Positions 3,308-52,774 of a stretch of DNA of 52,774 nt are shown here, one piece after another. The translations under genes were made by a program, and so were the position numbers. Position 1 is the first letter of the stretch. Each line of letters begins with the position of its first letter. Source of the DNA: a plasmid. The notes beneath the pieces are model-generated. The model was given only the letters and a program-made list of their open reading frames with translations. It did not search any database and was not told the origin of the DNA. Location: the sequence record NZ_CP088248.1. One strand, given 5' to 3'.

Positions 3308-4063
3308 CTACCCGCCTTCGCTGATCGCCAGAAGACCCGGTCGATCCTGGAGAGTGACCGATCTTGCCGTCTTGTAGTCGATGAGCCCCTTCCGGCGCAG
3401 CCTTGTGAAGACACGGCTCACGGTCTCGATGGTCAGACCAAGATAGTCGGCGATGTCAGAGCGCGTCATCGGCAGCTCGAGATCCTTGCTAGAGCCCCCC
3501 AGCCGTTGAGATGCTTCCGCTCGCGCCAGGAGGAAGCGGGCAACCCGCTCGTCCGCCGTCAGACGGCCAAGCAGAGTCATGTGCTCCTGACCAGCTGCAA
3601 CCTCGTCAGATGCTACAGCGAGGAGACGACGCTCGAGCTTTGGATAGGTCTCCAGGAGGACGCGGAACTTGCCGCGCTCAAACCGGCACAGCCGAACGTT
3701 CGTAAGGGCTTCGGCACTGCAGGGCACGGCATCAGGGCGGCCAAAACCGATGAAATCGCCCACCGTCAGGAACCCAATGACCGCGCGACGACCATCAGCC
3801 AGGAGCTTGAACAGTTTCACCGACCCCGAGATGATGTTGAACAGGTACTCCGGTGAAGCACCCTCGTTCCGGAAGACCTCACCTGGCGCGAGCTCGACCA
3901 CCGTGGTTGCCCGGGCCAGTTCGCTGAGCTGATCCTCCTCGATTGCGTTGCAGATGCTGACTGCACGAGCTTCGCAGAGCCCACAGCGCTCAACGCCACA
4001 CCCCTGACCGCGCTCGATGCGAGCGCACGGTTCGGCTTTTGTGCCAGGAGGAACGGTGGTCAC
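3308..4063 (-). CDS. FNR-type (Crp/Fnr family) transcriptional regulator with N-terminal Cys cluster (probable O2-sensing [4Fe-4S] type)
   Basis: cNMP-binding-like domain plus C-terminal HTH (SRVFTRLRRKGLI). N-terminal CARIERGQGCGVERCGLC cysteine cluster as in FNR/FnrN. The GTG at 4063, preceded by AGGAA, gives 251 aa. The long-frame start at 4246 would add 61 non-conserved residues. Confidence 0.75.
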   Translation of the reverse strand: MTTVPPGTKAEPCARIERGQGCGVERCGLCEARAVSICNAIEEDQLSELARATTVVELAPGEVFRNEGASPEYLFNIISGSVKLFKLLADGRRAVIGFLTVGDFIGFGRPDAVPCSAEALTNVRLCRFERGKFRVLLETYPKLERRLLAVASDEVAAGQEHMTLLGRLTADERVARFLLARAEASQRLGGSSKDLELPMTRSDIADYLGLTIETVSRVFTRLRRKGLIDYKTARSVTLQDRPGLLAISEGG

Positions 4064-4504
4064 AGTCGTGTTCCTGATGAGACGGTGAAGGCTGAAGGGC
4101 GACCCATAGCCTTCCTGGATGTTTCCAAGCCCAACGGTAATCTGCGTTTCTGCGTTCAAGAAGGCTCGGTTTATGCACGCAACCGCCGAGCTAGCGTGCC
4201 TGCCTCCAGCAAGACGTGTGCGCCTCGGTTGAGAGCGAGCGGTCAAGAAGCCGCTGAGTCTACGCCGTCAGTCGGTTCGGGCCGGAAAACCGCCTTGTGA
4301 TCAGCCTTGCACACATTAGGCTGCGCAAGGATCGCCTGCAGCCTGTCGCTTTCATGCACGGGGAGGCAAGTACAATTCTAACCAGCGTGCCCTTCCGCAA
4401 ATGCCAGGCTCGGGTGCCGCGCGCGAGATTTCGCCACGAGACATTCCGTTCTGACTTGGGTAAGTAGGGCGGAGTCAGACATCGAGATACCAGGGGTAAT
4501 CATC

Positions 4505-5022: not shown

Positions 5023-5841
5023 TCAGAAGGTACGAGGTTGGGCTTCTGAAACGTGAGGGTGGGGACCAATGGCACGCAGCTGTTGCGAAGTGCTACGATC
5101 CCGTTCAGAGGCCATCTCGTCCAGTTGCAGGTAATTTGCCTTGAACTCAGCGATTTCCGCAAGGCGTGGCAAGTCAAGGATTGTAAAATGTCTACCTTTA
5201 CGCTCAATAAGGCCCGCACGCCTGAGTGTACCTAAGGAGCGATTGACGTGTACCGGTGTTATGCCGGCAGTGTCCGCCAGATCAACCTGCGTAATTGGCA
5301 GCAGGAACGTCTGGTCCTTGGTCAGCCCGACCGCGCGCAATCGCACGTACAGCTCGCAGAAAAGATGGGCGAGGCGCTCTACGGCTGAGCGGCAGCCGAT
5401 GTTTACAAGCCACGCACGTAAAGTCGCCTCATTGACGCGCGCTGCTGTTTGTAGCGCCTGCATCACGGCGGGCCGCCGCTGGAGATCTGCGACTATCCAA
5501 GGAGCAACCCACACGGCCCGGCATGTGGAAAGAGTGCCAATAGCATAATCCATTCTGTCGAGCCGCGACGTGGCGAGGTCACAGACATCGCCCGGTAAAA
5601 GGTAGGCGAGGATCTGACGCGTTCCATTCTCCCGCAACTTGTATTGACAGGCAAAGCCTTGTCCAATCACAAGCATGCCTTGTGGCCGGTCGCCCTCGCA
5701 GATGAGATCTTTACCTGCCGGGAAGAACTGTCCTGCGGTCTCGATCGCGGTGAGCGCAACCCTATCAGTTACCTGTAAAGGCGCAAAAGCCTCAAGCTTG
5801 CGTACGAGCGGCCCGTGCGCTCCCTGTCGCAGCAACTGCAT
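5023..5841 (-). CDS. Crp/Fnr family transcriptional regulator (no Cys cluster; FixK/Crp-like)
   Basis: cNMP-binding-like domain plus HTH (ADTAGITPVHVNRSLGTLRRAGLI). Start placed at the internal ATG 5841 (MQLLRQ...), which is preceded by GGGAGG at -7. The long-frame start at 6078 has no RBS. Confidence 0.75.
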   Translation of the reverse strand: MQLLRQGAHGPLVRKLEAFAPLQVTDRVALTAIETAGQFFPAGKDLICEGDRPQGMLVIGQGFACQYKLRENGTRQILAYLLPGDVCDLATSRLDRMDYAIGTLSTCRAVWVAPWIVADLQRRPAVMQALQTAARVNEATLRAWLVNIGCRSAVERLAHLFCELYVRLRAVGLTKDQTFLLPITQVDLADTAGITPVHVNRSLGTLRRAGLIERKGRHFTILDLPRLAEIAEFKANYLQLDEMASERDRSTSQQLRAIGPHPHVSEAQPRTF

Positions 5842-6123
5842 TTCGCGTCCTCCCTGCCCTTTAGGGACCGCGACCACGCGTACCAATTGAGCAGCACTAA
5901 CATAGGCGTAGGTTGTGACCTTCAAGCCGCTACGCCGCTTATCAACCTTTAAATTACAAGCGACGGAATCTGTTAGGGTAAGCCTTTCCTCCTCGGTTCG
6001 CGATGGAAGGCAATTCGAGCAGTTCCTTAGCCGTAGTGGAACAGTGCACAATCGAATCAGATAGGTTAACGACAACATTCGAAGTAAATGGCAGCGTGGC
6101 TATCTGGTTGTATGAGGCTGCCT

Positions 6124-16746: not shown

Positions 16747-17067
16747 CTACCTGCAACGCGTTAGGTCGAAGGGTCCATCCGCCGTGTTGAGCCTCATCCG
16801 GTTCCGTCCCAGCCGTTCGACGACGCTCTCCGTCCGCGTGCCCTCTGCGACGACCACAAGCTGACCGCCTTTAAGGCTCCATCGAGCAGAGCCTTCATCC
16901 GTTGTCCCGTCCTGCGAATAAACAACAGCGGGAGGCTTGCAGCCGTCCGTACCCCAGCTGCCTACAAGATATTCACGAGTGACCGGCGAGGATCTATCTT
17001 TGGCGTTGACTGGCGTGTGGTAAGCTGTTGACAGCAACAGCATGACCAAGGCTGCGATTGAATTCAT
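16747..17067 (-). CDS. Secreted hypothetical protein
   Basis: Signal peptide MNSIAALVMLLLSTAYHTPVNA, then a Cys-containing soluble domain. Internal ATG start chosen. Confidence 0.45.
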   Translation of the reverse strand: MNSIAALVMLLLSTAYHTPVNAKDRSSPVTREYLVGSWGTDGCKPPAVVYSQDGTTDEGSARWSLKGGQLVVVAEGTRTESVVERLGRNRMRLNTADGPFDLTRCR

Positions 17068-17535
17068 TATCAATGGATTGGATTTTTTCTGCTGTAGGCT
17101 GAGCGGCACTTGATCACCAACGTTTTGTGCCACCAGGTTGCGCTTGTGCGGATGATATCGCGCCATAAGGTGGGCTTAGCCTGACTTCGTGGATGACCTA
17201 ACCATCAGGATGTCCACTGTCGGCTGAACGGGTAGCACGTTGCGGAGCCGCCGTGCTTGTACACATGTCTCAGCAGCTTGTCTGGGCGCCTCATACTGCG
17301 CCTTTCGCTCGTCGAGCCCACGTGGCCACGATAGCGGATGCGCCCTGATTTTGGTTGTCAATGGCGGCTTCCGTTCAGCGGCTCAAGGCCCGGGTTGTGC
17401 CCAGATGACCACCACTGCAGCTAGGCCGGGATCTTCACGGAGTCCGGCTCAAGTTCGCACCTCCCTCTTCTCGCTTCGGATGAAAGGCGCCGTCTCAGCA
17501 AAGCTTAGCCAATGTGATCGGCTTTAACATTCTGC

Positions 17536-17561
17536 GGAACTGCCTCAGGGCATGGACCGTT
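17536..17561 (+). promoter_or_regulatory. sigma-EcfG (general stress response) type promoter GGAAC-N17-CGTT, 29 nt upstream of the DUF2382 gene
   Basis: GGAAC (17536..17540), 17-nt spacer, CGTT (17558..17561). This matches the alphaproteobacterial EcfG consensus GGAAC-N16/17-CGTT. Confidence 0.6.
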
Positions 17562-17589
17562 CTCGTGCTGCAGAACAGGTCAGGCCACA

Positions 17590-18138
17590 ATGATCAAAAC
17601 ACCTCCTGTGGCAAGTGACGACGGTGCTTCCACGCAAGTGCCGTCGCAAAACGGCGGTACAGACGAAGATCTAACCCCGCTCGAGCTGCGAGCAGAGGAG
17701 GAGCTTGTTCTTCCTGTCGTCGAGGAAACTGCTCACATCGAGAAGCGGCTACGCGAAAAAGGTCGCGTCCGCGTCAGCACACAAACAGAAACCATCGAAA
17801 AGGTGCTCCGCGAGTCGCTGCACGGCAACACCGTGGGCGTCAGTCGGCTGCCCATCGACCGCGTCATCAAGGAAGGCGAGCCTGTTCCTCAGACGCGCAC
17901 GGAAGGCAGCGTCACCATCATCCCAATCCTCGAAGAGGTCCTCGTCGTCGAGAAGCGCCTGATCCTCAAGGAGGAGGTGCACATCCGCGAGACGAGCACG
18001 AACGAGGACGTCGAGGTTCCGGTCACCCTGCGCAAGCAGCGCGCGGTGATCGAACGCATAGGTCCGGAGGGGGCTGAACCCACCACACCTACGGAGGAAA
18101 CAGACCATGACCCAGACGATCACAGCCCTGTACGATAA
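17590..18138 (+). CDS. DUF2382 (YsnF/AvaK C-terminal repeat, PRC-barrel-like) stress protein
   Basis: Repeats of the type EETAHIEKRLREKGRVRVSTQTETIEK... and EEVLVVEKRLILKEEVHIRETSTNEDVEVPVTLRKQRAVIER, characteristic of DUF2382. Confidence 0.7.
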   Translation: MIKTPPVASDDGASTQVPSQNGGTDEDLTPLELRAEEELVLPVVEETAHIEKRLREKGRVRVSTQTETIEKVLRESLHGNTVGVSRLPIDRVIKEGEPVPQTRTEGSVTIIPILEEVLVVEKRLILKEEVHIRETSTNEDVEVPVTLRKQRAVIERIGPEGAEPTTPTEETDHDPDDHSPVR

Positions 18139-19051
18139 CCGGCAGGACGCTCAGAACGCGCTCAGCAAACTCGTCGCCGCCGGCATTCCCGAGTCCTCGG
18201 TCCGCCTCGTTCAGGGCCGCGAGGGCAGCACTGCTCAGAGCACCGGAGCTTACGACCACACCCGGGACGAAGGCGGCTTCTGGGGTTCGCTTAAAGACCT
18301 CTTCCTGCCGGAGGAGGACCGCTACTCCTACAGCGAGGGGCTGAACCGCGGCGGCACGATGCTGACGGTCTCTGCCGACGACAGCAAGATCCGTGCAGTC
18401 GCCGATATCCTTGAGCAGACCAACGCGGTCGACCTGGACGAGCGCGAGTCGTCCTGGCGGCAGGAGGGCTGGAGCGGCTACACCGCAGGTGCAACGGGTG
18501 CCGAGGCTGCGGGCGGTATTCCGGCAACCGGAGCGTCGGCCGGCACCACCGGTCTGCATGCCGCGGGTGGGGCCAGTTCCGCAGGTTCCTATGCTAGTGG
18601 GGTATCTGGTGTCACTGGCGCGGCACATGATGCGCAAGTCGGCAGCCGGGAGACTATCCCCGTCGTTGAGGAGCGTCTGAACGTCGGCAAGCGGGTCACC
18701 GAGCAGGGCCGGGTGCGGCTGCGCTCTTACGCCGTCGAGACGCCGGTAAACGAGCAGGTGAGCCTCCGTGAGGAGACGGTCCACGTCGACCGGCAAAGGG
18801 TTGATCGTCCGGTAACGGCCGCCGACGAGGCACTGTTTGCCGAGAAGACCATCGAAGCGACTGAGCGTGTCGAGGAGGCGGTGGTCTCCAAGGACGCCCG
18901 CGTCGTCGAGGAGGTGGGCCTGCGCAAGGATGCGACCCAGCACACCGAAACCATCACCGACAAGGTGCGGCGCACCGAGGTCGAGGTGGAAGACGAGCGT
19001 GGGAACGTCACACGTACCGGCACCGGCGGGACGACAACCGACAAGCGCTAA
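18107..19051 (+). CDS. YsnF/AvaK domain general stress protein (N-terminal GSP-17M-like domain plus DUF2382 repeats)
   Basis: N-terminus ITALYDNRQDAQNALSKLVAAGIP. C-terminus IPVVEERLNVGKRVTEQGRVRLRSYAVETPVNEQVSLREETVHVDRQRVDR. Overlaps the upstream gene by 32 nt (operon). Confidence 0.75.
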   Translation: MTQTITALYDNRQDAQNALSKLVAAGIPESSVRLVQGREGSTAQSTGAYDHTRDEGGFWGSLKDLFLPEEDRYSYSEGLNRGGTMLTVSADDSKIRAVADILEQTNAVDLDERESSWRQEGWSGYTAGATGAEAAGGIPATGASAGTTGLHAAGGASSAGSYASGVSGVTGAAHDAQVGSRETIPVVEERLNVGKRVTEQGRVRLRSYAVETPVNEQVSLREETVHVDRQRVDRPVTAADEALFAEKTIEATERVEEAVVSKDARVVEEVGLRKDATQHTETITDKVRRTEVEVEDERGNVTRTGTGGTTTDKR

Positions 19052-19168
19052 GCGCTTGTCGCGGCTGATATACCACAGCTCTTAAGCATCCTGCAGCTCG
19101 CTTGTGGGATGCTAGGAAATCCTTAACCATGAGCGCGTTGCGATGCAGCCTTTCGAGGTTGTGTCGCA

Positions 19169-19471
19169 ATGCGCTTCATCCATGTTGAGGACGGCCTACG
19201 TCTCCGCTTTCCCGGACGCGATGCAGCGTTCAACGAGGGTGTCGAGATCGGTATCCTGGCCGTCAACTTGGCCAGCGGACGTGGCGAGTTCACGCTGCAG
19301 CTCTCCAGCGGCACACTTGAGCAGGCTCGAGCCCTCGCCGCGCAGATGGGCTACCGGGTGCATGTCGTCCGGAGCGACGAAGCCTGGGCAGGAGTGACGT
19401 TTCTGACCGGCCGTAGGCGACCCAAGCTGACGCTGATCCACAATCCGCCAGAGGCTCAGGCTGCAGGCTGA
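19169..19471 (+). CDS. Hypothetical protein
   Basis: ORF only. No recognisable family. Confidence 0.3.
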   Translation: MRFIHVEDGLRLRFPGRDAAFNEGVEIGILAVNLASGRGEFTLQLSSGTLEQARALAAQMGYRVHVVRSDEAWAGVTFLTGRRRPKLTLIHNPPEAQAAG

Positions 19472-19910
19472 CCAACGGAACGCCCGCTGCCGTGTGGTTC
19501 AACCATTCGGAACAGTGGCGATCTGCTTCTCGGTGACATTCAGAACGAGGTCGGCAACCACAGCCGATCGTGGCGGTTGACCCAAGCAGCTAAAGCCACG
19601 GAGAGCGTTGTGGCCGTTATTACGATCACGATCGGACTGCGCACCGGCACCCGGCTTCTCGCAGCCAACTCAGAACGCAGTGCCGCTAGCTACGCCGAGG
19701 CGGTTGTCTACGCCATACCGCGCGAAGCTCTCCCGGTGCCTCTGGCTGTCTCTTGCCTCGATACAGGCGTCCGCAACCGGCTGACCGAGTATCTGCTCGA
19801 TCTGCAGACCGAATGCCTGCGTATGCCTCTGCCAAACCAGAACGCGTCTGGGGCTTTGGGCTGATTGAAGGGCTTTCCATGCCGCTTCAGTCCTGCCTAC
19901 ATCTCACCCC

Positions 19911-25479: not shown

Positions 25480-26475
25480 ATGAAGAAGGCCCTGGTTGTC
25501 GGGATTGACGACTACCATTCCGCACCTTTGCAAGGGTGCGTGAACGATGCATCTTCCGTAGCGCAGCTTCTCGAGCGCAATGGTGACGGTTCCCCGAACT
25601 TCTCCGTCAGGCTGCTCACCAGTGACAAGCTTGAGGTCAATGCACAGGTTCTGCTGCAGGCCATCACTGAGCTTTTCAGCGGCGATGCCGATACGGCTCT
25701 GCTGTTTTTTGCTGGGCATGGGATCATCAACCCGGAAACGAATGCCGGCTATATCGTCAGTCAGGACGGGCGGAAGCCCAGTTGGGGAGTCACGCTATCT
25801 GACATCCTCCATCTGGCCAACCAAGCGTACCCGCGCGTGAAGTCGAGCGTGATCATCCTAGACAGCTGTCAATCCGGCTATGCTGGTGAAATCCAAGGAC
25901 TTGGTTCGGCAGCGAACCAACCGTCGGTGATCGGTAACGGAGTAACAATCCTGACCGCTTCACATCGGGAGGGTACTGCCGCCGAAGAGGATGGGCATGG
26001 ACTCTTCACTAGCATCCTCCTTGATGGTTTGAGCGGTAGCTCGGCTGATGTAATCGGCCGGATTACGCCGGCATCCGTGTACTCCCATATCGATCAGACG
26101 CTTGGGCCTTGGAAACAGCGTCCTGTTTACAAGGCGAACGTGCAAACCTTTGTAACGCTACGCAATGTGGCTCCAAAGATCCCCCACGAGGTGCTGCGAC
26201 GACTGCCAGAGTACTTTCCAGACCCGGCGCACGTGTTTCAACTGGATCCATCCTACGAGCCTGACCGTGAGAATGTGCCGGAGCGCGTTAAGCACATCCC
26301 GGTCGACGAAGATCACAAGCGTATCTTCAAGGAGCTACAGCTTTGTAATCGGCATGGTCTCATCGTGCCCGTCGATGCTGAGCACATGTACTATGCTGCG
26401 ATAGACTCCAAAGGATGTCGTCTTTCTGCGCTTGGTGCCCACTACAGAAAGCTCGCGATCCTTGGGCGTATATAG
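25480..26475 (+). CDS. Caspase-like (peptidase C14/metacaspase family) protein with an uncharacterised C-terminal domain
   Basis: KKALVVGIDDYHSAPLQGCVNDASSVAQLL...LLFFAGHGI...IILDSCQSG gives the His (AGHG) and Cys (DSCQSG) catalytic dyad context of caspase/metacaspase. Confidence 0.8.
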   Translation: MKKALVVGIDDYHSAPLQGCVNDASSVAQLLERNGDGSPNFSVRLLTSDKLEVNAQVLLQAITELFSGDADTALLFFAGHGIINPETNAGYIVSQDGRKPSWGVTLSDILHLANQAYPRVKSSVIILDSCQSGYAGEIQGLGSAANQPSVIGNGVTILTASHREGTAAEEDGHGLFTSILLDGLSGSSADVIGRITPASVYSHIDQTLGPWKQRPVYKANVQTFVTLRNVAPKIPHEVLRRLPEYFPDPAHVFQLDPSYEPDRENVPERVKHIPVDEDHKRIFKELQLCNRHGLIVPVDAEHMYYAAIDSKGCRLSALGAHYRKLAILGRI

Positions 26476-26489
26476 ATAAGTGAGGGGAT

Positions 26490-26966
26490 ATGAAGGTCTT
26501 CCTTTCTCATCAAAAGGCCGACTCTGAGACTGCAGGGATTATCGCAACTAGATTGAAGCTTTATCACCAAATTGACGTCTATCTGGACGTTGTTGATCCA
26601 AACGCGTCAACAACGGGAGACGATCTAGGAGAGTACTTGCGCCAGCAGCTCTCAATTTGCACCCAGCTGATGGCAGTTGTGTCCGCTGCAACGAAAACCT
26701 CGTGGTGGGTACCGTGGGAAATTGGTGTTGCTACCGAGAAGGATTATCCGATCGCCACCTTTGCGGGAGGCTACACGACGCTGCCCGAATATCTGCGCAA
26801 GTGGCCTTACCTTCAGTCCATGAGTGATGTCGATGCTTATGCTGAGGCAAGCAAGATGGCACAGCGCGAGTTCAAGAACCGGAGAACCTATCAAACGGAT
26901 AGCTTAGCGCGGCGTAGCTCTACAAAAGACTTTTATCGCGTGTTGCGCTCAAGCCTACGTCAGTGA
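26490..26966 (+). CDS. TIR domain protein (TIR_2-like)
   Basis: MKVFLSHQKADSETA...SWWVPWEIGVA matches bacterial TIR motifs (vFiSh..D, S.WC..El). Confidence 0.7.
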   Translation: MKVFLSHQKADSETAGIIATRLKLYHQIDVYLDVVDPNASTTGDDLGEYLRQQLSICTQLMAVVSAATKTSWWVPWEIGVATEKDYPIATFAGGYTTLPEYLRKWPYLQSMSDVDAYAEASKMAQREFKNRRTYQTDSLARRSSTKDFYRVLRSSLRQ

Positions 26967-39082: not shown

Positions 39083-40936
39083 ATGCCTCTCAAAGCCGAG
39101 AACGGCACCGTGCAGGGCTTTCTCAAGATCCTGCGCGATCGCACCCAACAGCGCGTCGAAGCAGCAGAGCGTAACGCCAGCGAGCTGCGCTTCCGCTCGC
39201 TCGTCGAGGTCAGCCCTCAGGTGGTCTGGTTCGGTGATGCCGCCGGCAACATCACCTACTGCAACCCGATCTGGTACGAGTTCACGGGGCTACCGTCAGG
39301 TGACACAAACTGGGCCAGCGTGATCCACCCAGACCACCAGGAACGTGTGCTGGAGGTCTGGAGGCATGCGGTTGAGACCGAGGGACCCTACGAGGTCGAG
39401 ATCCCGTTCCGCCGAGCCAGCGATGGCCAGTACCGCTGGTTCCTGGCGCGCGGCAAACCCATAAGCGATGCTGCCGGCGTACCGGATTGCTGGATCGGCA
39501 TCGCCATCGACATCCACGACCGCAAGGAGGCTGAGATTGCCCTCCGCAGCGCGCAGGAGCAGTTGCGCCTTGCCGTCGAGGCGACCGAGACGGGCGTGTT
39601 CGACTATGACCTCGTCTCGGACGAGCTGAAGTGGGACAACCGCATCCGTTCGTTCTACGGCCTAGCGCCGGACGCTCCCGTCAACCTGGCCGTGCACCTG
39701 GCTCGCGTGCACCCGGACGACCATGCCAAGGCGGATGAAGCGGTGCGCGCCGCGATCGATCCGGCCGGCGACGGCATCTACGACATCACCTATCGCACGG
39801 TGGCCCCGGAGGACGGGACCGAGCGCTGGGTGTCTGCCAAGGGTCAGACCCTCTTTGAGGGCGGACGACCGGTGCGTCTCATCGGCACCGCGCGCGATGT
39901 CACCGGGAGCCGGCGCGCGGAGCAGGTTCTGCGCGAAACCGAGGAGCGCTACCGCCTCGCCTCGCGCGCCACCAACGATGCGATCTGGGACTGGAACCTC
40001 GCCACCAACCACGTGCTCTGGAACGAGGCGCTGCAGGTTGCCCACGGCTACGCGCCTGATGCGGTCGAGCCGACCGGTGACTGGTGGATCAGCCACATCC
40101 ATCCCGACGACCGCGCCCGCATCGATGCCTCCATCCATGCTGTTATCGATGGGACGGGTACTGTCTGGAGCGACGAGTACCGCTTCCTGCGGGCCGACGG
40201 CTCCTATGCCGACATCCTCGACCGCGGTTCCGTCATCCGCGACGCGCAGGGAAAAGCGACGCGCATGATTGGGGCGATGCTGGACATCACCGAGCGCAAG
40301 CAGGCGGAAGAGCAGCAGCGCCTGCTGACGGGTGAGCTGCAGCACCGGGTCAAGAACACGCTGGCGATGGTGCAGGCGATTGCCAGTCAGACGCTGCGAG
40401 GGGCGGCGGACATCGACGAAGCGCGTGAGGCTTTTGCCGCCCGCCTAATCTCACTCGGCCGCGCGCATGACATTCTCACGCAGGCCAGCTGGAAGGCTGC
40501 CCCGATCATGGAGGTGGTCCAGGGGGCCCTGAGTGTGCATGCCCAGGCCGGACCTGCACGGATCCGGGTTAGCGGCCCGAACGTGCTGCTCGGTGCGAAA
40601 TCAGCCCTCTCACTGGCTCTGGCTCTGCACGAGCTGGCCACCAACGCGGCCAAGTACGGCGCTCTTTCGAACGAAAGCGGGATCGTGGAGCTGCGCTGGC
40701 ACATTGTGCACGAGGGCGAAGCGCCCCGGTTCTGCCTTACCTGGTCCGAGCAGGGTGGGCCGCCCATTCTCGCCCAGCCTGCGCGGCGCGGGTTCGGCTC
40801 ACGCCTGATCGAGCGCAGCTTCGCCGCCGAGGTCGGTGGTGAGGTTAGGCAGACCTATGCACCGACCGGGCTAATCTGCCGCCTGGAGGCGCCCCTTGCC
40901 TCGATGCAGGAGCAGCGTAGCGAAATCGCAGCATAG
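39083..40936 (+). CDS. Multi-PAS HWE-family sensor histidine kinase, apparently 5'-truncated by the adjacent IS21 insertion
   Basis: Three PAS-like segments, then LLTGELQHRVKNTLAMVQAI (HisKA_2 H-box) and HELATNAAKYGALS (HWE_HK). The ORF begins with the tail of a PAS domain (GTVQGFLKILRDRT) only 24 nt from the IS21 end. Confidence 0.8.
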   Translation: MPLKAENGTVQGFLKILRDRTQQRVEAAERNASELRFRSLVEVSPQVVWFGDAAGNITYCNPIWYEFTGLPSGDTNWASVIHPDHQERVLEVWRHAVETEGPYEVEIPFRRASDGQYRWFLARGKPISDAAGVPDCWIGIAIDIHDRKEAEIALRSAQEQLRLAVEATETGVFDYDLVSDELKWDNRIRSFYGLAPDAPVNLAVHLARVHPDDHAKADEAVRAAIDPAGDGIYDITYRTVAPEDGTERWVSAKGQTLFEGGRPVRLIGTARDVTGSRRAEQVLRETEERYRLASRATNDAIWDWNLATNHVLWNEALQVAHGYAPDAVEPTGDWWISHIHPDDRARIDASIHAVIDGTGTVWSDEYRFLRADGSYADILDRGSVIRDAQGKATRMIGAMLDITERKQAEEQQRLLTGELQHRVKNTLAMVQAIASQTLRGAADIDEAREAFAARLISLGRAHDILTQASWKAAPIMEVVQGALSVHAQAGPARIRVSGPNVLLGAKSALSLALALHELATNAAKYGALSNESGIVELRWHIVHEGEAPRFCLTWSEQGGPPILAQPARRGFGSRLIERSFAAEVGGEVRQTYAPTGLICRLEAPLASMQEQRSEIAA

Positions 40937-41385: not shown

Positions 41386-41541
41386 GGTTCCTTGAACGAA
41401 GACGTCTTCCCCACCATGCACAGGAATTTTTAACAGATCAATTTATGGACCCGCCTCCCACGCGGCACGTTCTTACGAAAACGCAGGGAGCTGCCACGCT
41501 GCCGGCGAGCCGATTAAATAGCACACGGGAGACAGGACTAC

Positions 41542-42087
41542 ATGGCCACCAAGCAGAAAACCTTGCAGGATGCGTTCTACGAAACCCTCAAGGACGTCTA
41601 TTACGCGGAAAAGCAGTCTGTCCGGGCTTTGAAGAAGTCGGCCAAGGCGGCCGAGCACGATGAGCTGCGCCAAGCCTTCGAGACCCATGCCGAGGAAAGC
41701 GCCAATCAGGTCGAGCGCCTGCAGCAGGTGTTCGAGATCATCGGTAAGCCGGCGCGTGCCAAGACCTGCGAGGCGATGCAGGGCCTGACCTCGGAAATGG
41801 AAGAAGATCTTGAGGACTTCGAGGATAGCCCGGCGGCGGACGCTGTGCTGGCGGCCTGTGCGCAGGCGGTCGAGCACTACGAGATCGCCCGCTACGGCAC
41901 GCTGAAGACCTGGGCGAGCCAGCTCGGCTACGCGGACGCCGCCAAGCTGCTGGATGAGACCCTGCAGGAAGAAAAGAAGACCGATCAGCTGCTTTCCGAG
42001 ATCGCCGAGCGGATCAACGTCGAAGGTTCAGAGACGGACGCTGAGGAAGGCACCACCAAAGGCAAGGGCGGGCGCAAGGCTACCTGA
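41542..42087 (+). CDS. Ferritin-like domain stress protein, YciE/YciF (DUF892) family
   Basis: DAFYETLKDVYYAEKQSVRALKK...EHYEIARYGTL matches DUF892. Confidence 0.75.
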   Translation: MATKQKTLQDAFYETLKDVYYAEKQSVRALKKSAKAAEHDELRQAFETHAEESANQVERLQQVFEIIGKPARAKTCEAMQGLTSEMEEDLEDFEDSPAADAVLAACAQAVEHYEIARYGTLKTWASQLGYADAAKLLDETLQEEKKTDQLLSEIAERINVEGSETDAEEGTTKGKGGRKAT

Positions 42088-46350: not shown

Positions 46351-46935
46351 TCACTGAAGCGGTACGCGAGCGCGAACGCGGATCCCGTCCGGTTCGAAGG
46401 CAACCTCGACCTCAGCCTTTGTCTGTGCGGCCAGGACCTTGTTCAGGAGGCGGTGTCCGAACCCCTCCCGGGTAGGATGCCCGACCGGAGGGCCGTCATG
46501 CTCGTCCCAGTTCCATCGCAGGCACTGTCCGCTGGAGCCGTCCTCAATCCACCAAGTGACCTCGACCCGACCTTTAGGATCGGCGAGAGCGCCGTGTTGC
46601 AGGGCGTTGGTCGTCAACTCGTGCAGAGCCATGCTTACCGGCACGGCAAGGTTGGACGGCAGCATGACCCTGGGACCTTCCAAGGTAATCCGCCCATGAT
46701 CGTTGTACGGATCGAGTTCCGACCGCAGCAATCCCTCAAACGAAGCCGCTTGTGAGAGATCCTCCGTGATCAGCGCGTGAGTCCGCGCCAGCGAGCTGAT
46801 CCGAGCGGTCAATGCACGAGTGAACTCTGAGATCGAGAGGGAAGAGCGAACGGTGGCGTTCATCACCGCCTGCACGGTCGCGAGCGTATTTTTGACGCGA
46901 TGGTGCAACTCGCGCACCATGAGCTTCTGGCGCTC
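46351..46935 (-). pseudogene. C-terminal (HisKA_2 + HWE_HK) fragment of a PAS-HWE histidine kinase gene split by IS21 copy 3
   Basis: ...ERQKLMVRELHHRVKNTLATV...HELTTNALQHGAL. The reading frame runs without a stop to the IS end at 46935. Confidence 0.8.
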
Positions 46936-47052
46936 TGTCAGCGGGCGTTGAATACTCCCTGATTGTGGGCATCGAAAATTCCCTGGTCGGTGCCCTGGCC
47001 CGTAGGGTCGCGACGCCCCGCGCCCTCTCGGGCTTTTCCATCCTCAGCCACC

Positions 47053-48354
47053 ATGCCTGCCGATACCGATCGGCTGGGAGCGACGAGGATGGTTCTGCTG
47101 GGAGAACTCGTCATGATCTTGGACCTGCACCGACAGGGCCTGTCCGTCTCCGCCATCGCCCGCCGGACCGGCCGCGATCCGAAGACGATCCGCAAGTACA
47201 TCGAGCGCGGCCTCGAGCCGCCGGCCTACGGCCCGCGTCAGCCCGGCCGCCCGAGCAAGCTCGCGCCCTATCTCGATTATCTGCGCGAGCGGATCACCGC
47301 CTTCCCCGACCTGAGTGCCGTGCGCCTGACCCGCGAGTTGCGCGAGCGCGGCTACACCGGTGCCTACACCGCGGTGAAGCGGTTCGCCGCCGCGATCCGG
47401 CCGCCCGAGGCCAAGCCCTACGAGGTCCGCTTCGAGACCCCGGCCGGCCAGCAGGCGCAGGTCGACTTCGCCCGCTTCCTCGTCACCTTCACGGATGCGC
47501 CGGACACGACCTGCATCGTCTGGCTGTTCTCGCTGGTGCTCGGCCATTCCCGGCACATCGAGGCGCGCTTCGTCCTGCATCAGGACCTGCAAACGCTGCT
47601 GCGCTGTCACATGCAGGCCTTCACCGCGATCGGCGGCGTGCCGATCGAGATCCTCTACGATCGCATGAAGACGGCGGTCACCGGCGAGGATGCGGACGGC
47701 CACATCGTCTACAACCGATCCCTGCTGGCACTCGCCCAGCACTACGGATTCCTGCCGCGCGCCTGCCGCCCGTACCGGGCCAAGACCAAGGGGAAGGTCG
47801 AGCGACCGTTCTCCTACATCCGCCAGGACTTCTTCCTCGCACGTTCCTTCCGCGACCTCGACGACCTCAACCGCCAGCTTCGGAGCTGGCTCGATACCGT
47901 CGCCAACGTCCGCTTGCACGGCACCACGCAGCGGATCGTCTCGGAAGCCTTCGCCGCCGAGCGGCCCGAGTTGCAGCCCTTGCCGGCTCTGCCCTTCGAC
48001 GCTCTGCTCACGCTGGAGCGGCGCGTCAGCCACGATGGCCTCGTCTCGATCGGTGGCAACTATTACAGCGTACCGGATCGGACCCGGCGCGTCGTCGAGG
48101 TGCATCAGTTGCCCGACACGATCCGCATCCTCGATGGTGGCCGGCTCGTCGCGAGCCATCCGATCCTGGAGGGACGACGGCAGTACCGCATCGACCCCGA
48201 CCATCGGCAAGGCACGGCCGCTCGGGCCATGCGCCGCGGCCATCCCGACGGTCTGCCGATCGGCCGCCATGGCGATCACGTCGCCCGGCGCTCGCTGGCT
48301 GTCTACCAGGCAGTCGGCGAACGGCTCGCCGGCGGGATCGGAGGCCAGCGATGA
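47053..48354 (+). CDS. istA: IS21 family transposase IstA
   Basis: HTH (ILDLHRQGLSVSAIARRTGRDPKTIRKYI), DDE core. Confidence 0.9.
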   Translation: MPADTDRLGATRMVLLGELVMILDLHRQGLSVSAIARRTGRDPKTIRKYIERGLEPPAYGPRQPGRPSKLAPYLDYLRERITAFPDLSAVRLTRELRERGYTGAYTAVKRFAAAIRPPEAKPYEVRFETPAGQQAQVDFARFLVTFTDAPDTTCIVWLFSLVLGHSRHIEARFVLHQDLQTLLRCHMQAFTAIGGVPIEILYDRMKTAVTGEDADGHIVYNRSLLALAQHYGFLPRACRPYRAKTKGKVERPFSYIRQDFFLARSFRDLDDLNRQLRSWLDTVANVRLHGTTQRIVSEAFAAERPELQPLPALPFDALLTLERRVSHDGLVSIGGNYYSVPDRTRRVVEVHQLPDTIRILDGGRLVASHPILEGRRQYRIDPDHRQGTAARAMRRGHPDGLPIGRHGDHVARRSLAVYQAVGERLAGGIGGQR

Positions 48355-49217
48355 GCCGCGCCGCCCCCTGTGTCGCCACGACCCTCGACAGCATCAAGCG
48401 CAGCTTGGTCGGCCTGCGCATGCCGCGCGCCCTGGAGGTGCTCGACGCGACGGTCCGGCGCATCGAGCAGGGCGAGATCGACGGCTTGGCCGCCCTCGAC
48501 GTGATCCTGACCGAGGAACTGACGCTGCGCGAGAACCGCCGCGTGAAGACCGCCCTGCTGGTCGCGCGCCTGACCACGATCAAGACGCTGTCCGGGTTCG
48601 ACTTTGCCTTCCAGCCCTCGCTCGACCGCGAGCGCGTCCTGGCGCTGGCGGAACTGACCTTCATCGACCGGGCCGAGGTCGTCCATCTGCTCGGACCACC
48701 CGGCACCGGCAAGAGCCATCTGGCGATCGCGCTCGCCGTCGAGGCGGTCAAGGCCGGGCGCAGCGTCGTGTTCTCGACGCTGGCCGACCTCGTGACCTCG
48801 CTGGCCAAGGCCGAGCGCGACGGCTCCCTGCGCGAGCGCATCCGCTATCTCTGCCGGGCCTCGCTGCTGGTCGTGGACGAGATCGGCTACCTCCCCGTCG
48901 TCCCCGGTGGCGGCAACCTGTTCTTCCAACTCGTCAACGCGCGCTACGAGCGCGGGGCGATGATCCTGACTTCGAACCGCGGCTTCGCCGAGTGGGGCGA
49001 AGTGTTCGGTGATCCGGTCGTGGCGACAGCCCTGCTCGACCGACTCCTCCACCATGCCGTGGTGATCCAGATCGAGGGGGCGAGCTACCGCCTGCGCCAG
49101 CACGCCGACCTCGTCCCCGAGCACGTCCGCTCCAAGGCCCTGATCGTTCCGCCGCCCGCACCCAGGCGTCGCGGTCGTCCACCCGGAAAGGCTGCCTCCG
49201 ATCACACGGCCGGCTGA
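48351..49217 (+). CDS. istB: IS21 family helper ATPase IstB
   Basis: Walker A GPPGTGKSHLAIALA, DEIGYLPV. ATGA overlap with istA. Confidence 0.9.
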   Translation: MSRAAPCVATTLDSIKRSLVGLRMPRALEVLDATVRRIEQGEIDGLAALDVILTEELTLRENRRVKTALLVARLTTIKTLSGFDFAFQPSLDRERVLALAELTFIDRAEVVHLLGPPGTGKSHLAIALAVEAVKAGRSVVFSTLADLVTSLAKAERDGSLRERIRYLCRASLLVVDEIGYLPVVPGGGNLFFQLVNARYERGAMILTSNRGFAEWGEVFGDPVVATALLDRLLHHAVVIQIEGASYRLRQHADLVPEHVRSKALIVPPPAPRRRGRPPGKAASDHTAG

Positions 49218-49294
49218 TCACCGATCCGCACCGAACCCGCCGGCCAGGGAATTTTGAAAGCCCACAATTGCGGAGACTTCGGTGCCCGTTGACA

Positions 49295-49725
49295 CGCTCC
49301 TCGTAAGCATGACGCTCTGTTACGTCACGCTGCGCCGAGACCCAGTGCGTGATGGAGCCGTTCTTCTCACGCACTGGCGTGATGAGCCACTCTACCACGT
49401 AGGTTGATCCGTCCTTGCGGTAGTTGATGGTCTCGCCTTGGAAGGGGTTACCAGCCCCAAGAGCCATGCGCATCCGGTGCAGGACCCCACCGTCGGTCTC
49501 CGGCCCCTGCAGCAGCCGCGGTGATCGCCCGAGGACCTCGTGCGCTTCGTAGCCGGTCATGCGGGTGAAGGCCGAATTGGTGTACTCGATGCGTGGTCCG
49601 GGCTCATCGAGATCGGCCGAGGTGATGAGGATGGCTTCCCCGGCCGCTTCGACGGCAGCAAGAAGCACATCCAGATCGGGACGAACCTGCGCCGCTCCGT
49701 GATCCTCGCGCAAGTCCTCCTCCAT
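49295..49725 (-). pseudogene. N-terminal PAS-domain fragment of the same histidine kinase gene (other side of IS21 copy 3)
   Basis: ILITSADLDEPGPRIEYTNSAFTRMTGYEAHEVLGRSPRLLQG...INYRKDGSTYVVEWLITPVREKNGSITHWVSAQRDVTERHAYEER is a PAS fold ending exactly at the TSD. Confidence 0.8.
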
Positions 49726-49948: not shown

Positions 49949-50344
49949 TCATGGCTTGTGCAGAGCCTCGTTGGGCGACATGGGCATCATGTTCTGATCC
50001 ATGTGATACATCACCCATATCGATCCAACCAAGGTAATCAGCACAAGCGTCAGCGTGAAAACGAGGGCGAGAAAGGTCCATCCGCCCTCGGATTTCATGT
50101 TTAAGTGCAAGAAATAGATCATGTGGACGAAAATCTGCACGACGGCAAAGCCCATGATGACGATATCGGTCTTAAGCTTGCTGTCGAGAACATCGCCCAT
50201 CACGAGCCAGAACGGTATTGCCGTGAGGATGACTGAGAGGATGAACCCCGTCATGTAGCCCGACCGGGTGCCATGAGCAGGGCCGTGGCCGGTCCCATGC
50301 ATATGTGGACCAGTGCCGTGTACAGGGTGAGCCGGAGCACTCAT
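49949..50344 (-). CDS. cyoD: Cytochrome bo3 ubiquinol oxidase subunit IV
   Basis: Three TM helices. Similarity to CyoD (GFILSVILTAIPFWLV). ATGA overlap with the cyoC stop. His/Gly-rich N-terminus. Confidence 0.8.
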   Translation of the reverse strand: MSAPAHPVHGTGPHMHGTGHGPAHGTRSGYMTGFILSVILTAIPFWLVMGDVLDSKLKTDIVIMGFAVVQIFVHMIYFLHLNMKSEGGWTFLALVFTLTLVLITLVGSIWVMYHMDQNMMPMSPNEALHKP

Positions 50345-50967
50345 CGCGTCGCTCCCATCAGGTACACAAAGGTGAAGACGCCGATCCACACCACGTCGAG
50401 GAAATGCCAGAACATCGAGAGGCATAGGAGGCGACGCTGGTTGTCAGCGATCAGCCCGTGCTGCCGCACCTGGAACATCAGCGTCACGAGCCAGATGATC
50501 CCGAATGTCACGTGGAGCCCGTGCGTCCCGACCAGGAGGAAGAACGAAGAGAGAAAGGCGCTCCGCTGGGGCGTGGCGCCCTCATGGATCAGGTGCGCGA
50601 ACTCATAGAACTCGATGGCGAGGAACCCAGCTCCGAGCACGCCTGTCGCGGCGAGCCAGCGCAGGACCGCGTCCACCTGCTCCTCCTCCATCTTCAGCAT
50701 GGCAAAGCCATAGGTGATGGAGGACAGGAGCAGGAGGCTGGTGTTGAGAGCAACGAGCTTGAGGTCGAACAGCTCGGCGCCGGATGGGCCTGCCGCGTAG
50801 TTCCGGCCGAGCACGCCGTAGCAGGCGAAGAGCACCGCAAAAATGAGGCAGTCGCTCATCAGGTAGAGCCAGAAGCCCAGGAGCGTGCCCCCGTCACCGT
50901 GGGCATGCTCCTCCTGCTCGTAGAAGACCGGAGCCGTAGCGCCGGGTGGGGCGGTCACTTCATGCAT
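50341..50967 (-). CDS. cyoC: Cytochrome bo3 ubiquinol oxidase subunit III
   Basis: Near-collinear with E. coli CyoC (FGFWLYLMSDCLIFAVLFA, GTHGLHVTFGIIWL, SMFWHFLDVVWIGVFT). Confidence 0.9.
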   Translation of the reverse strand: MHEVTAPPGATAPVFYEQEEHAHGDGGTLLGFWLYLMSDCLIFAVLFACYGVLGRNYAAGPSGAELFDLKLVALNTSLLLLSSITYGFAMLKMEEEQVDAVLRWLAATGVLGAGFLAIEFYEFAHLIHEGATPQRSAFLSSFFLLVGTHGLHVTFGIIWLVTLMFQVRQHGLIADNQRRLLCLSMFWHFLDVVWIGVFTFVYLMGATR

Positions 50968-50970
50968 GGC

Positions 50971-52774
50971 TCAGACCCGTCCCACCAGTTGCGCCGCTCT
51001 CTGGGCTTCGAGCCGGTTCACTTCCGCGGCCGGGATATAGAAGCTCGTGTGGTAGTTGAACGTGTGCCTGATCGAGACCGCAATCAGGGCAATGAGCGAC
51101 AGGGCGGCGAGCCACCACACGTACCAGACCAAGGCAAACCCAAGCACAGTGCTCAGAGCGGCCAGTGTCATGCCCATCGCCGTGTTGCAGGGCATGTGAA
51201 TGGGTCTGAAGCCTCCTGCTGGCCGCTCATGGCCGCGCTTCTTCATGTCCCACCAGGCGTCGAGATCGTGCACCACGGGTGTGAACGCGAAGTTGTAGGG
51301 GGGTGGGGGTGAGGAGGTGGACCACTCAAGCGTCCGTCCACCCCAGGGATCACCGGTAAGGTCACGCAGCTGCTCGCGTCGCAGGATGCTCACGAGAAGC
51401 TGCACGACAAAGGCCAGGATGCCAGCCATGATGATGAAGGCGCCGAACGCCGCAACCATCAGGTAGGGCTGCACCGACGGATCGTCGAAATGCTGGGTCC
51501 GACGCGTCTCGCCCATTAGACCGAGGGCATAGATCGGCGTGAACACGACCCAGAAGCCAACCAGCCAGCACCAGAAGCTGACCTTTCCCCAGAAGGGGTC
51601 GAGACGGAAGCCGAAGGCTTTCGGGAACCAGTACTGCACGCCGGCGAGCAGCCCGAACACGACGCCGCCGATGATGACGTTGTGGAAATGCGCAACCAGG
51701 AACAGGCTGTTGTGGAGGACAAAGTCGGCCGGCGGCACGGCAAGCAGCACGCCGGTCAGGCCACCCAGCACGAAGGTCGGGATGAAACCCATGACCCAAA
51801 TGAAGGGGCCCTCGAAGCGGATCTTGCCCCGGTACATGGTGAACAGCCAGTTGAACACCTTGGCCCCGGTCGGGATCGAGATGATCATGGTCGTGATGCC
51901 GAAGAAGGCGTTGACGTTGGCGCCGGCACCCATCGTGAAGAAGTGGTGGAGCCAGGTCAGCCATGACACGAGCGCGATGACAGCGGTGGCGTAGACCATC
52001 GACGTATAGCCAAACAGCCGCTTTCCGCAGAACGTCGAGACGATCTCCGAGTAGATGCCGAAGGCAGGTAGGACGAGTACGTAAACCTCCGGATGCCCCC
52101 AGATCCAGATGAGGTTCATGTACAGCATCGAGTTGCCGCCGTAATCGTTCGTGAAGAAGTGTGTCCCCACGTAACGATCACAGGCCAGAAGAGCCAACGT
52201 GGCGGTCAGAACCGGAAAAATCGTGACGATGATTGCATTGCTAGCGAGCGTGGTCCAGCAGAACACCGGCAGCTTCATCATAGTCATGCCGGGCGCGCGC
52301 ATCTTCACGATGGTCGCGATCAAATTGATCGCAGACAGCGTCGTGCCGACGCCGGCGATCTGTAGGCTCCAGATGTAGTAATCGACACCGACGCCCGGGC
52401 TGTAGGCTGCTCCGGAGAGCGGCGGGTAGGCAAGCCAACCCGTACGGGCAAACTCGCCCACAAACAGCGACAGCATCGTCAGGATGGCGCCGCCTGCCGT
52501 CATCCAGAAGCTGAAGTTGTTGAGAAATGGAAAGGCCACATCGCGCGCTCCGATCTGGAGCGGCATGATGTAATTCATCACCCCGGTCACGAATGGCATC
52601 GCCATGAAGAAGATCATGATCGTGCCGTGGGCGGTGAAGATCTGATCGTAGTGATGCGGTGGCAGGTAACCCTGTGCCTCTCCGACCGAGAGAGCCTTTT
52701 GTGTGACCATCATGATTGCGTCGGCAAAGCCGCGCAGCAGCATTACGATGGCGAGGATGATGTACATGATGCCG
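50971..52774 (-). CDS. cyoB: Cytochrome bo3 ubiquinol oxidase subunit I, C-terminal 601 codons. Continues from 200..1 across the window junction.
   Basis: Heme-copper oxidase subunit I with CyoB-specific stretches ([29 protein letters not shown]). The reading frame enters from the right edge with ...GIMYII. Confidence 0.9.

Follow-up and report, generated by a model that had tools for sequence, protein, structure and literature searches.

In the general stress response of Alphaproteobacteria, stress-activated HWE/HisKA_2 kinases phosphorylate PhyR, and phosphorylated PhyR sequesters NepR, by which the sigma factor EcfG is freed. The subject of this study is a putative EcfG-dependent promoter and the two overlapping genes that follow it, which together occupy positions 17536 to 19051 of a plasmid sequence (NZ_CP088248.1). 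The whole stretch of 52,774 nucleotides (nt) was analysed and is referred to below as the window. The closest described promoters are those of Methylobacterium extorquens AM1 and Sphingomonas melonis Fr1, for which we drew on passages of one paper each. M. extorquens AM1 has six ecfG genes, and its EcfG consensus, GAAC-N16,17-C/GGTT, lies upstream of 61% of the EcfG1-dependent genes (PMC4814048). In S. melonis Fr1 the motif is GGAAC-N17-20-GTT, the count including the base before GTT; it is enriched at up to 100 nt from start codons, and its variants include GGAAA, GGACC-like, and CATT forms (PMC6599016).

The two plasmid genes encode proteins of the YsnF/AvaK family. YsnF of Bacillus subtilis is a SigB-dependent general stress protein. 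In Anabaena, avaKa, whose product combines a PRC-barrel with a DUF2382 domain, is induced by stress through OrrA, and tolerance of dehydration requires it (PMC9804601). This role in dehydration is the only functional data that we found for the DUF2382 family, and a sequence search found no solved structure for it.

Promoter site and gene pair

The -35 box (GGAAC, 17536-17540) and the -10 box (CGTT, 17558-17561) were both read directly in the plus strand, separated by a spacer of 17 nt (17541-17557), at the positions reported in the initial annotation. The -35 box is the same in all orthologous promoters compared, and the -10 box is followed by a conserved C. The claim that the site matches the alphaproteobacterial EcfG consensus held in full: both boxes and the 16-17 nt spacing agree perfectly with the published form, and the match to the GAAC-N16,17-C/GGTT of M. 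extorquens is exact (PMC4814048). The site also lies where it had been placed relative to the genes, on the correct strand and with CGTT 28 nt 5' of the ATG of gene 1 (17590). From the usual distance between the -10 box and the start in promoters of the extracytoplasmic function (ECF) class, transcription is predicted to begin on the plus strand at 17566-17570, which would give a leader of about 20-24 nt. We conclude that the site at 17536-17561 is very probably a promoter of the EcfG (ECF15) class.

The upstream neighbour (16747-17166) lies on the opposite strand, leaving a divergent intergenic region of 423 nt; because of this divergence, the gene pair needs a promoter of its own within that region. 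A consensus scan from 17100 to 19600 found no sigma-70-like promoter, and the EcfG-type site is the only recognisable promoter of the intergenic region. The TTAACA within a palindrome described below was considered as a sigma-70 -35 box and rejected; it lacks a -10 partner at a suitable distance and gave no sigma-70-like match.

Gene 1 (17590-18138, plus strand) encodes a protein of 182 amino acids (aa) with one DUF2382 domain at residues 41-153 (Pfam PF09557, E 8.8e-15, 55.4 bits). Gene 2 (18107-19051, plus strand) encodes 314 aa, in which a YflT-like N-terminus is followed by a linker rich in Gly, Ala, and Ser and by a C-terminal DUF2382 domain (E 2.6e-22, 79.6 bits). Both DUF2382 scores exceed the Pfam cut-off of 23 and the two genes share 32 nt (18107-18138), which bears out their description as an overlapping pair of the YsnF/AvaK family. 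The match of gene 2 to the YflT domain (PF11181, residues 7-70) is marginal, at 27.3 bits against a cut-off of 26.2. For the NCBIfam model TIGR02271 the two proteins scored 21 and 25 bits and did not reach the cut-off of 49.75; despite these scores, the RefSeq title of the orthologues is 'YsnF/AvaK domain-containing protein'. The same pair was called independently in public contigs of identical sequence. The orthologue of gene 1 in Methylorubrum suomiense is 93% identical and that in Methylobacterium sp. R2-1 is 79% identical, and 3204 homologues of gene 2 at E<=1e-20 were present among 8000 candidates scored. A near-identity search of the locus against plasmids gave no match; the relatives came from a search in distant mode. 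Matches on Sinorhizobium plasmids covered the YflT-like N-terminus only, so the RpoE2 regulon of Sinorhizobium meliloti was unusable for comparison.

A ribosome-binding site, GGAGGAA (18093-18099, plus strand), lies 7 nt 5' of the gene 2 ATG. The 32-nt overlap together with this strong internal site suggests that translation of genes 1 and 2 may be coupled.

Regulation by EcfG would proceed as follows. Under stress, phosphorylated PhyR of the host would capture the anti-sigma factor NepR and release EcfG, which, with core RNA polymerase, would recognize GGAAC (-35) and CGTT (-10) of the plasmid promoter. Transcription would start about 6-9 nt past CGTT, near 17566-17570, and would yield a bicistronic mRNA with a short leader, encoding the small DUF2382 protein and the YflT-DUF2382 protein, the latter translated from its own ribosome-binding site within the end of gene 1. 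Expression would thus be wired into the chromosomal general stress response, and a second site on the plasmid (GGACC-N16-CGTT, 41447-41471) would do likewise for a DUF892/YciF gene.

Conservation of the promoter

Five Methylobacteriaceae promoters were compared: those of the window, Methylobacterium sp. R2-1, a plasmid of M. currus, Methylobacterium sp. BE186, and a metagenomic relative. [quoted passage not shown] Between the more distant members of this set, the spacer and the distal upstream DNA have diverged beyond recognition while the boxes have been kept. The paralogous operon on the M. extorquens AM1 chromosome has GGAAC-N17-CATT at -72.

The motif GGAAC-N16/17-N[GA]TT precedes the homologous operon in 12 of the 15 alphaproteobacterial loci surveyed, and these 12 span at least five or six separate lineages in four orders; by shuffling, its chance occurrence is about 1.2% per 300-nt upstream region. 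The Shinella, Rhizobium sp. ZX09, Brucella anthropi, Agrobacterium tumefaciens, and Pseudochrobactrum plasmids have GGAAC-N16/17-CGTT at -55/-56 of the pair, in promoters that look unrelated to that of the plasmid outside the boxes. GGAAC-N16/17-NGTT is located at -122 from the small DUF2382 gene in Polymorphobacter and at -116 in Loktanella, and, measured from a tiny leading open reading frame (ORF), at -61 in Indioceanicola and -57 in Azospirillum.

The control set consisted of eight beta- and gammaproteobacterial loci, from Burkholderia, Paraburkholderia, Caballeronia (two), a Comamonadaceae strain, Pseudomonas luteola, Pantoea vagans, and Methylomagnum. The small and large DUF2382 pair is present in six of the eight; the other two, P. 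luteola and Pantoea vagans, each have one YsnF/AvaK gene. The motif was present in none of the 12 upstream regions of these loci. To our knowledge, EcfG is confined to Alphaproteobacteria and is absent from beta- and gammaproteobacteria, and for this reason the distribution of the motif fits recognition by EcfG.

The composition of the operon varies among these loci. In many Alphaproteobacteria a gene of about 320 aa leads the DUF2382 pair in one operon; among five such loci it carries a PhnA-like annotation in two and is unannotated in three, one of them that of AM1. In the module of the Rhizobiaceae the pair is instead followed by genes for a PhnA-like protein and an L,D-transpeptidase, and in Sphingomonadales an OmpA-family gene stands between the two DUF2382 genes. 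In the Azospirillaceae (locus L014, 908-1075; locus L015, 943-1071) a tiny ORF of 42-55 aa, whose C-terminus is hydrophobic, separates the EcfG-like motif from the small DUF2382 gene.

Palindrome and alternative explanations

An imperfect palindrome, ATGTGA-N7-TAACAT, occupies 17512-17530, 5 nt 5' of the -35 box. In the five diverged Methylobacteriaceae promoters the half-sites ATGT(G/A)A and TAACAT are kept, the 7-nt spacer and the flanks vary, and the distance to GGAAC is 4-6 nt. Because the half-sites are fixed and the spacer between them is variable, the palindrome is a candidate site for a second, dimeric regulator. A further conserved block, AAGCT, lies 5 nt 5' of it (region 17502-17530).

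The promoter might therefore be read by EcfG and also be gated by a second regulator at 17512-17530, which would integrate the general stress response with another signal. This would extend regulation by EcfG, not replace it, and we regard it as possible, though at less than even probability. In its favour, beyond the unchanged half-sites, their near-constant distance from GGAAC, and the AAGCT block, the palindrome loosely resembles the classical Crp/Fnr-type site, TGTGA...TCACA; moreover, two Crp/Fnr-family regulators are encoded on the plasmid, and Crp/Fnr genes adjoin the operon in Polymorphobacter, M. terricola, and Methylomagnum. Against it, the spacing exceeds that of the CRP consensus by one base, and the second half-site has TAACA where a CRP site would have TCACA. 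The Rhizobiaceae/Brucellaceae promoters of the pair lack the palindrome, and in the window it occurs just once (at 0 mismatches). In a metagenome scan for the palindrome plus GGAAC, nearly all of the matches listed were chance matches in contigs of low GC content, and one, a locus like that of M. currus, was a true relative. The half-sites could also belong to an UP-like element or have been kept through shared promoter ancestry. The more specific proposal, that the palindrome is the operator of a dimeric regulator, maybe one of the Crp/Fnr proteins encoded on the plasmid or beside related operons, which activates or vetoes EcfG-dependent transcription of the DUF2382 operon in Methylobacteriaceae, is doubtful and is put forward tentatively. 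As the newest detail of this promoter, the palindrome is a lead and not a finding; if the proposal is true, combinatorial control would be added on top of an ECF promoter.

Several points weigh against assignment of the promoter to EcfG. The strict motif was absent upstream in three of the 15 alphaproteobacterial loci (Sphingomonas naphthae, Lichenicola, and Microvirga ossetica, the last of which has TGAAC-N16-GGTT ahead of an upstream csbD), and many of the positive loci are related, so that they represent fewer than 12 independent events. On both strands of the 52.8-kb window, strict GGAAC-N16/17-CGTT occurs once, whereas shuffled windows contained a mean of 0.56 matches, with at least one match in 47 of 100 shuffles. 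The count in the window alone does not exceed chance, and the case therefore rests on position and on conservation across genomes. The evidence comes from the plasmid and its relatives. In the searchable literature we found no expression, start-site, or sigma-dependence data for any alphaproteobacterial DUF2382 gene, and no paper in which DUF2382/YsnF genes are listed among the targets of EcfG. The initial annotation had called the two genes classic members of the EcfG regulon; that label could be traced to no paper, but its substance is backed by the promoter comparison across genomes. Finally, other ECF sigma factors recognize similar AAC and CGT boxes.

It follows from this last point that sequence alone cannot name the sigma factor, and the promoter might be read by a different ECF sigma factor of the host with a similar preference for AAC at -35 and CGT at -10. 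Many ECF groups have GGAAC-like -35 and CGT-like -10 elements, methylobacteria encode many ECF sigma factors, and the link of this site to EcfG is itself a prediction from sequence. We nevertheless consider this explanation unlikely: the site fits the EcfG consensus exactly, with the 16-17 nt spacing included; the motif accompanies the operon in four alphaproteobacterial orders and is missing from the beta- and gammaproteobacterial homologues, as expected for a sigma factor specific to Alphaproteobacteria; and the gene families are induced in general stress elsewhere, as with avaK in Anabaena and the SigB-dependent YsnF of B. subtilis. The least probable explanation, that the motif arose by chance and that a housekeeping promoter which escaped recognition drives the genes, draws on the single strict match against 0.56 expected, but it is very hard to reconcile with the conservation of both boxes by position in every close and several distant orthologues, the absence of a sigma-70-like site from the region, and the chance level of about 1.2% per upstream region.

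With the assignment to EcfG, the locus is a well-supported yet ordinary case of an established type of regulation, and it leaves the understanding of the stress circuitry unchanged. It adds a plasmid-borne, well-footprinted target to the predicted EcfG regulon. An operon of small and large DUF2382 genes with an EcfG-type promoter in several alphaproteobacterial orders is not stated in the searchable literature. Such an operon offers a practical handle, a defined promoter with a defined regulator, on a family of unassigned function that is tied to desiccation tolerance, and it is a modest example of a mobile element that borrows the stress circuitry of its host.

Plasmid setting and relation to described systems

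The window, of 52,774 bp, forms a closed circle, because its ends join into one uninterrupted ORF: the last 1.8 kb (50970-52774) and the first 260 nt form a frame of 687 codons with a CyoB-like N-terminus. The RepA/ParA region is 80-84% identical to those of small Methylobacterium plasmids, and a MobA/MobL relaxase and a type IV coupling protein are encoded, making the plasmid mobilizable. Public contigs of 51.8 and 54.3 kb bear the same protein. Two IS21-family insertion sequence (IS) elements match copies in M. extorquens AM1, DM4, and related strains at 99.8-100% identity, and the nearest relatives of the plasmid genes and IS elements are in Methylorubrum and Methylobacterium. No family match to a sigma factor or PhyR was found among the likely real ORFs of at least 150 aa, a screen that left out smaller ORFs such as one for NepR. 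Since no sigma factor was found among the ORFs scanned, the EcfG of the host would read the promoter; the proposal that these plasmid genes rely on a host sigma factor appears fair.

The second EcfG-like promoter, GGACC-N16-CGTT, had been described as a weaker site before the YciF/DUF892 gene. It is present on the plus strand, at 41447-41471 and not, as first given, at 41457-41481, a difference of 10 nt, and it lies 95 nt 5' of the ATG of the DUF892 gene (41542). This gene (41542-42087, plus strand) encodes a DUF892/YciF-type ferritin-like four-helix-bundle protein, whose match to Pfam PF05974 (E 4.6e-56) spans 153 of the 159 profile positions. Corresponding sites precede the DUF892 genes of the M. 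currus plasmid (GGACC-N16-CGTT, -94), M. nodulans pMNOD02 (GGACC-N16-CGTT, -95), M. bullatum (GGAGC-N16-CGTT, about -100, read by eye), and Microvirga sp. VF16 (GGAAC-N16-GGTT, -59). The second site is probably functional, though we hold this with lower confidence than for the site at 17536-17561.

Directly upstream of the second site is an intact histidine kinase of the HWE family with three PAS domains (39083-40936, plus strand; Pfam HWE_HK E 7.9e-27, PAS_3 E 2.2e-54). HWE-family kinases phosphorylate PhyR in Alphaproteobacteria, and by analogy this kinase may take part in the stress response. Another PAS/HWE kinase is interrupted by an IS21-family element (46965-49217), which separates its PAS half (46351-46920) from its HWE half (48934-49725). 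If the palindrome is indeed an operator, then, together with the HWE kinases of the plasmid, the mobile element would bring both inputs and outputs of the general stress response of its host.

Downstream of gene 2 is a stable hairpin without a T-tract (19080-19117, plus strand); the RNA fold of 19045-19170 has an energy of -55.2 kcal/mol (z = -4.25). The hairpin is a possible weak terminator or processing site, and a canonical terminator occupies the equivalent position in the M. currus orthologue. Gene 3 (19169-19471, plus strand) encodes 100 aa, 52% identical to the neighbour in M. currus, and had no Pfam or NCBIfam match. In Methylobacteriaceae its homologue is always 3' of the DUF2382 pair (seen in four loci). 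Because of the hairpin after gene 2 and the M. currus terminator there, gene 3 is probably a separate or semi-independent transcription unit and not an obligatory member of the operon. The sequence GTTAAC occurs about 45 nt 5' of the gene 3 ATG in all five lineages, and the second of two strong hairpins (19137-19170) spans the gene 3 ribosome-binding site and start codon. A GGAAA-N16-CGTT sequence before gene 3 (19115-19139) was considered as a third EcfG site and rejected; its -35 box is GGACT or GGCTT in close relatives.

Elsewhere on the plasmid, a cyoABCD-like quinol oxidase cluster runs across the junction (COX2 224-1540, COX1 50971-52767, COX3 50341-50967, and COX4 49949-50425). The two Crp/Fnr-family regulators (3308-4246, 312 aa; 5023-6078, 351 aa) have unusually long N-termini, and their genes are near those for the quinol oxidase and a major facilitator superfamily transporter. 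At 25480-26966 a caspase-like protein (Peptidase_C14/CHAT, 331 aa) is encoded beside a TIR-domain protein (158 aa); together they are candidates for a defence pair against phages.

Compared with the EcfG promoters of M. extorquens AM1 (PMC4814048) and S. melonis Fr1 (PMC6599016), as described in the passages drawn on, the plasmid promoter has the same GGAAC, CGTT, and spacing of 16-17 nt, and, as in the S. melonis targets, the motif lies within 100 nt of the start codon. Promoters of this class likewise stand ahead of small proteins of stress families, and the probable host belongs to the genus where this system was defined. The plasmid case differs in that the promoter is carried by a small mobilizable plasmid and the EcfG reading is a prediction, and in having a palindrome 5' of the -35 box, a feature unmentioned in those passages of PMC4814048 and PMC6599016.

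Both plasmid proteins have in common with the YsnF/AvaK family one DUF2382 domain, above the Pfam threshold, and members of this family are stress-induced. The N-terminus of AvaKa is a PRC-barrel, whereas that of the gene 2 protein is YflT-like and the gene 1 protein is a lone DUF2382 domain. The regulators differ as well. In Bacillus, YsnF is regulated by SigB, unlike the plasmid pair, for which EcfG is predicted. In Anabaena the regulator is OrrA (PMC9804601).

The M. extorquens AM1 chromosomal operon (CP001510, 4151333-4153658) likewise contains a small and a large DUF2382 gene, the large protein being 67% identical to that of the plasmid, and has an EcfG-like motif upstream, as on the plasmid. 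It differs in having three genes, the first of which is a 320-aa gene where related loci have a PhnA-like gene. Its -10 box is CATT, and, unlike the plasmid locus, it has neither the upstream palindrome nor the downstream 100-aa gene.

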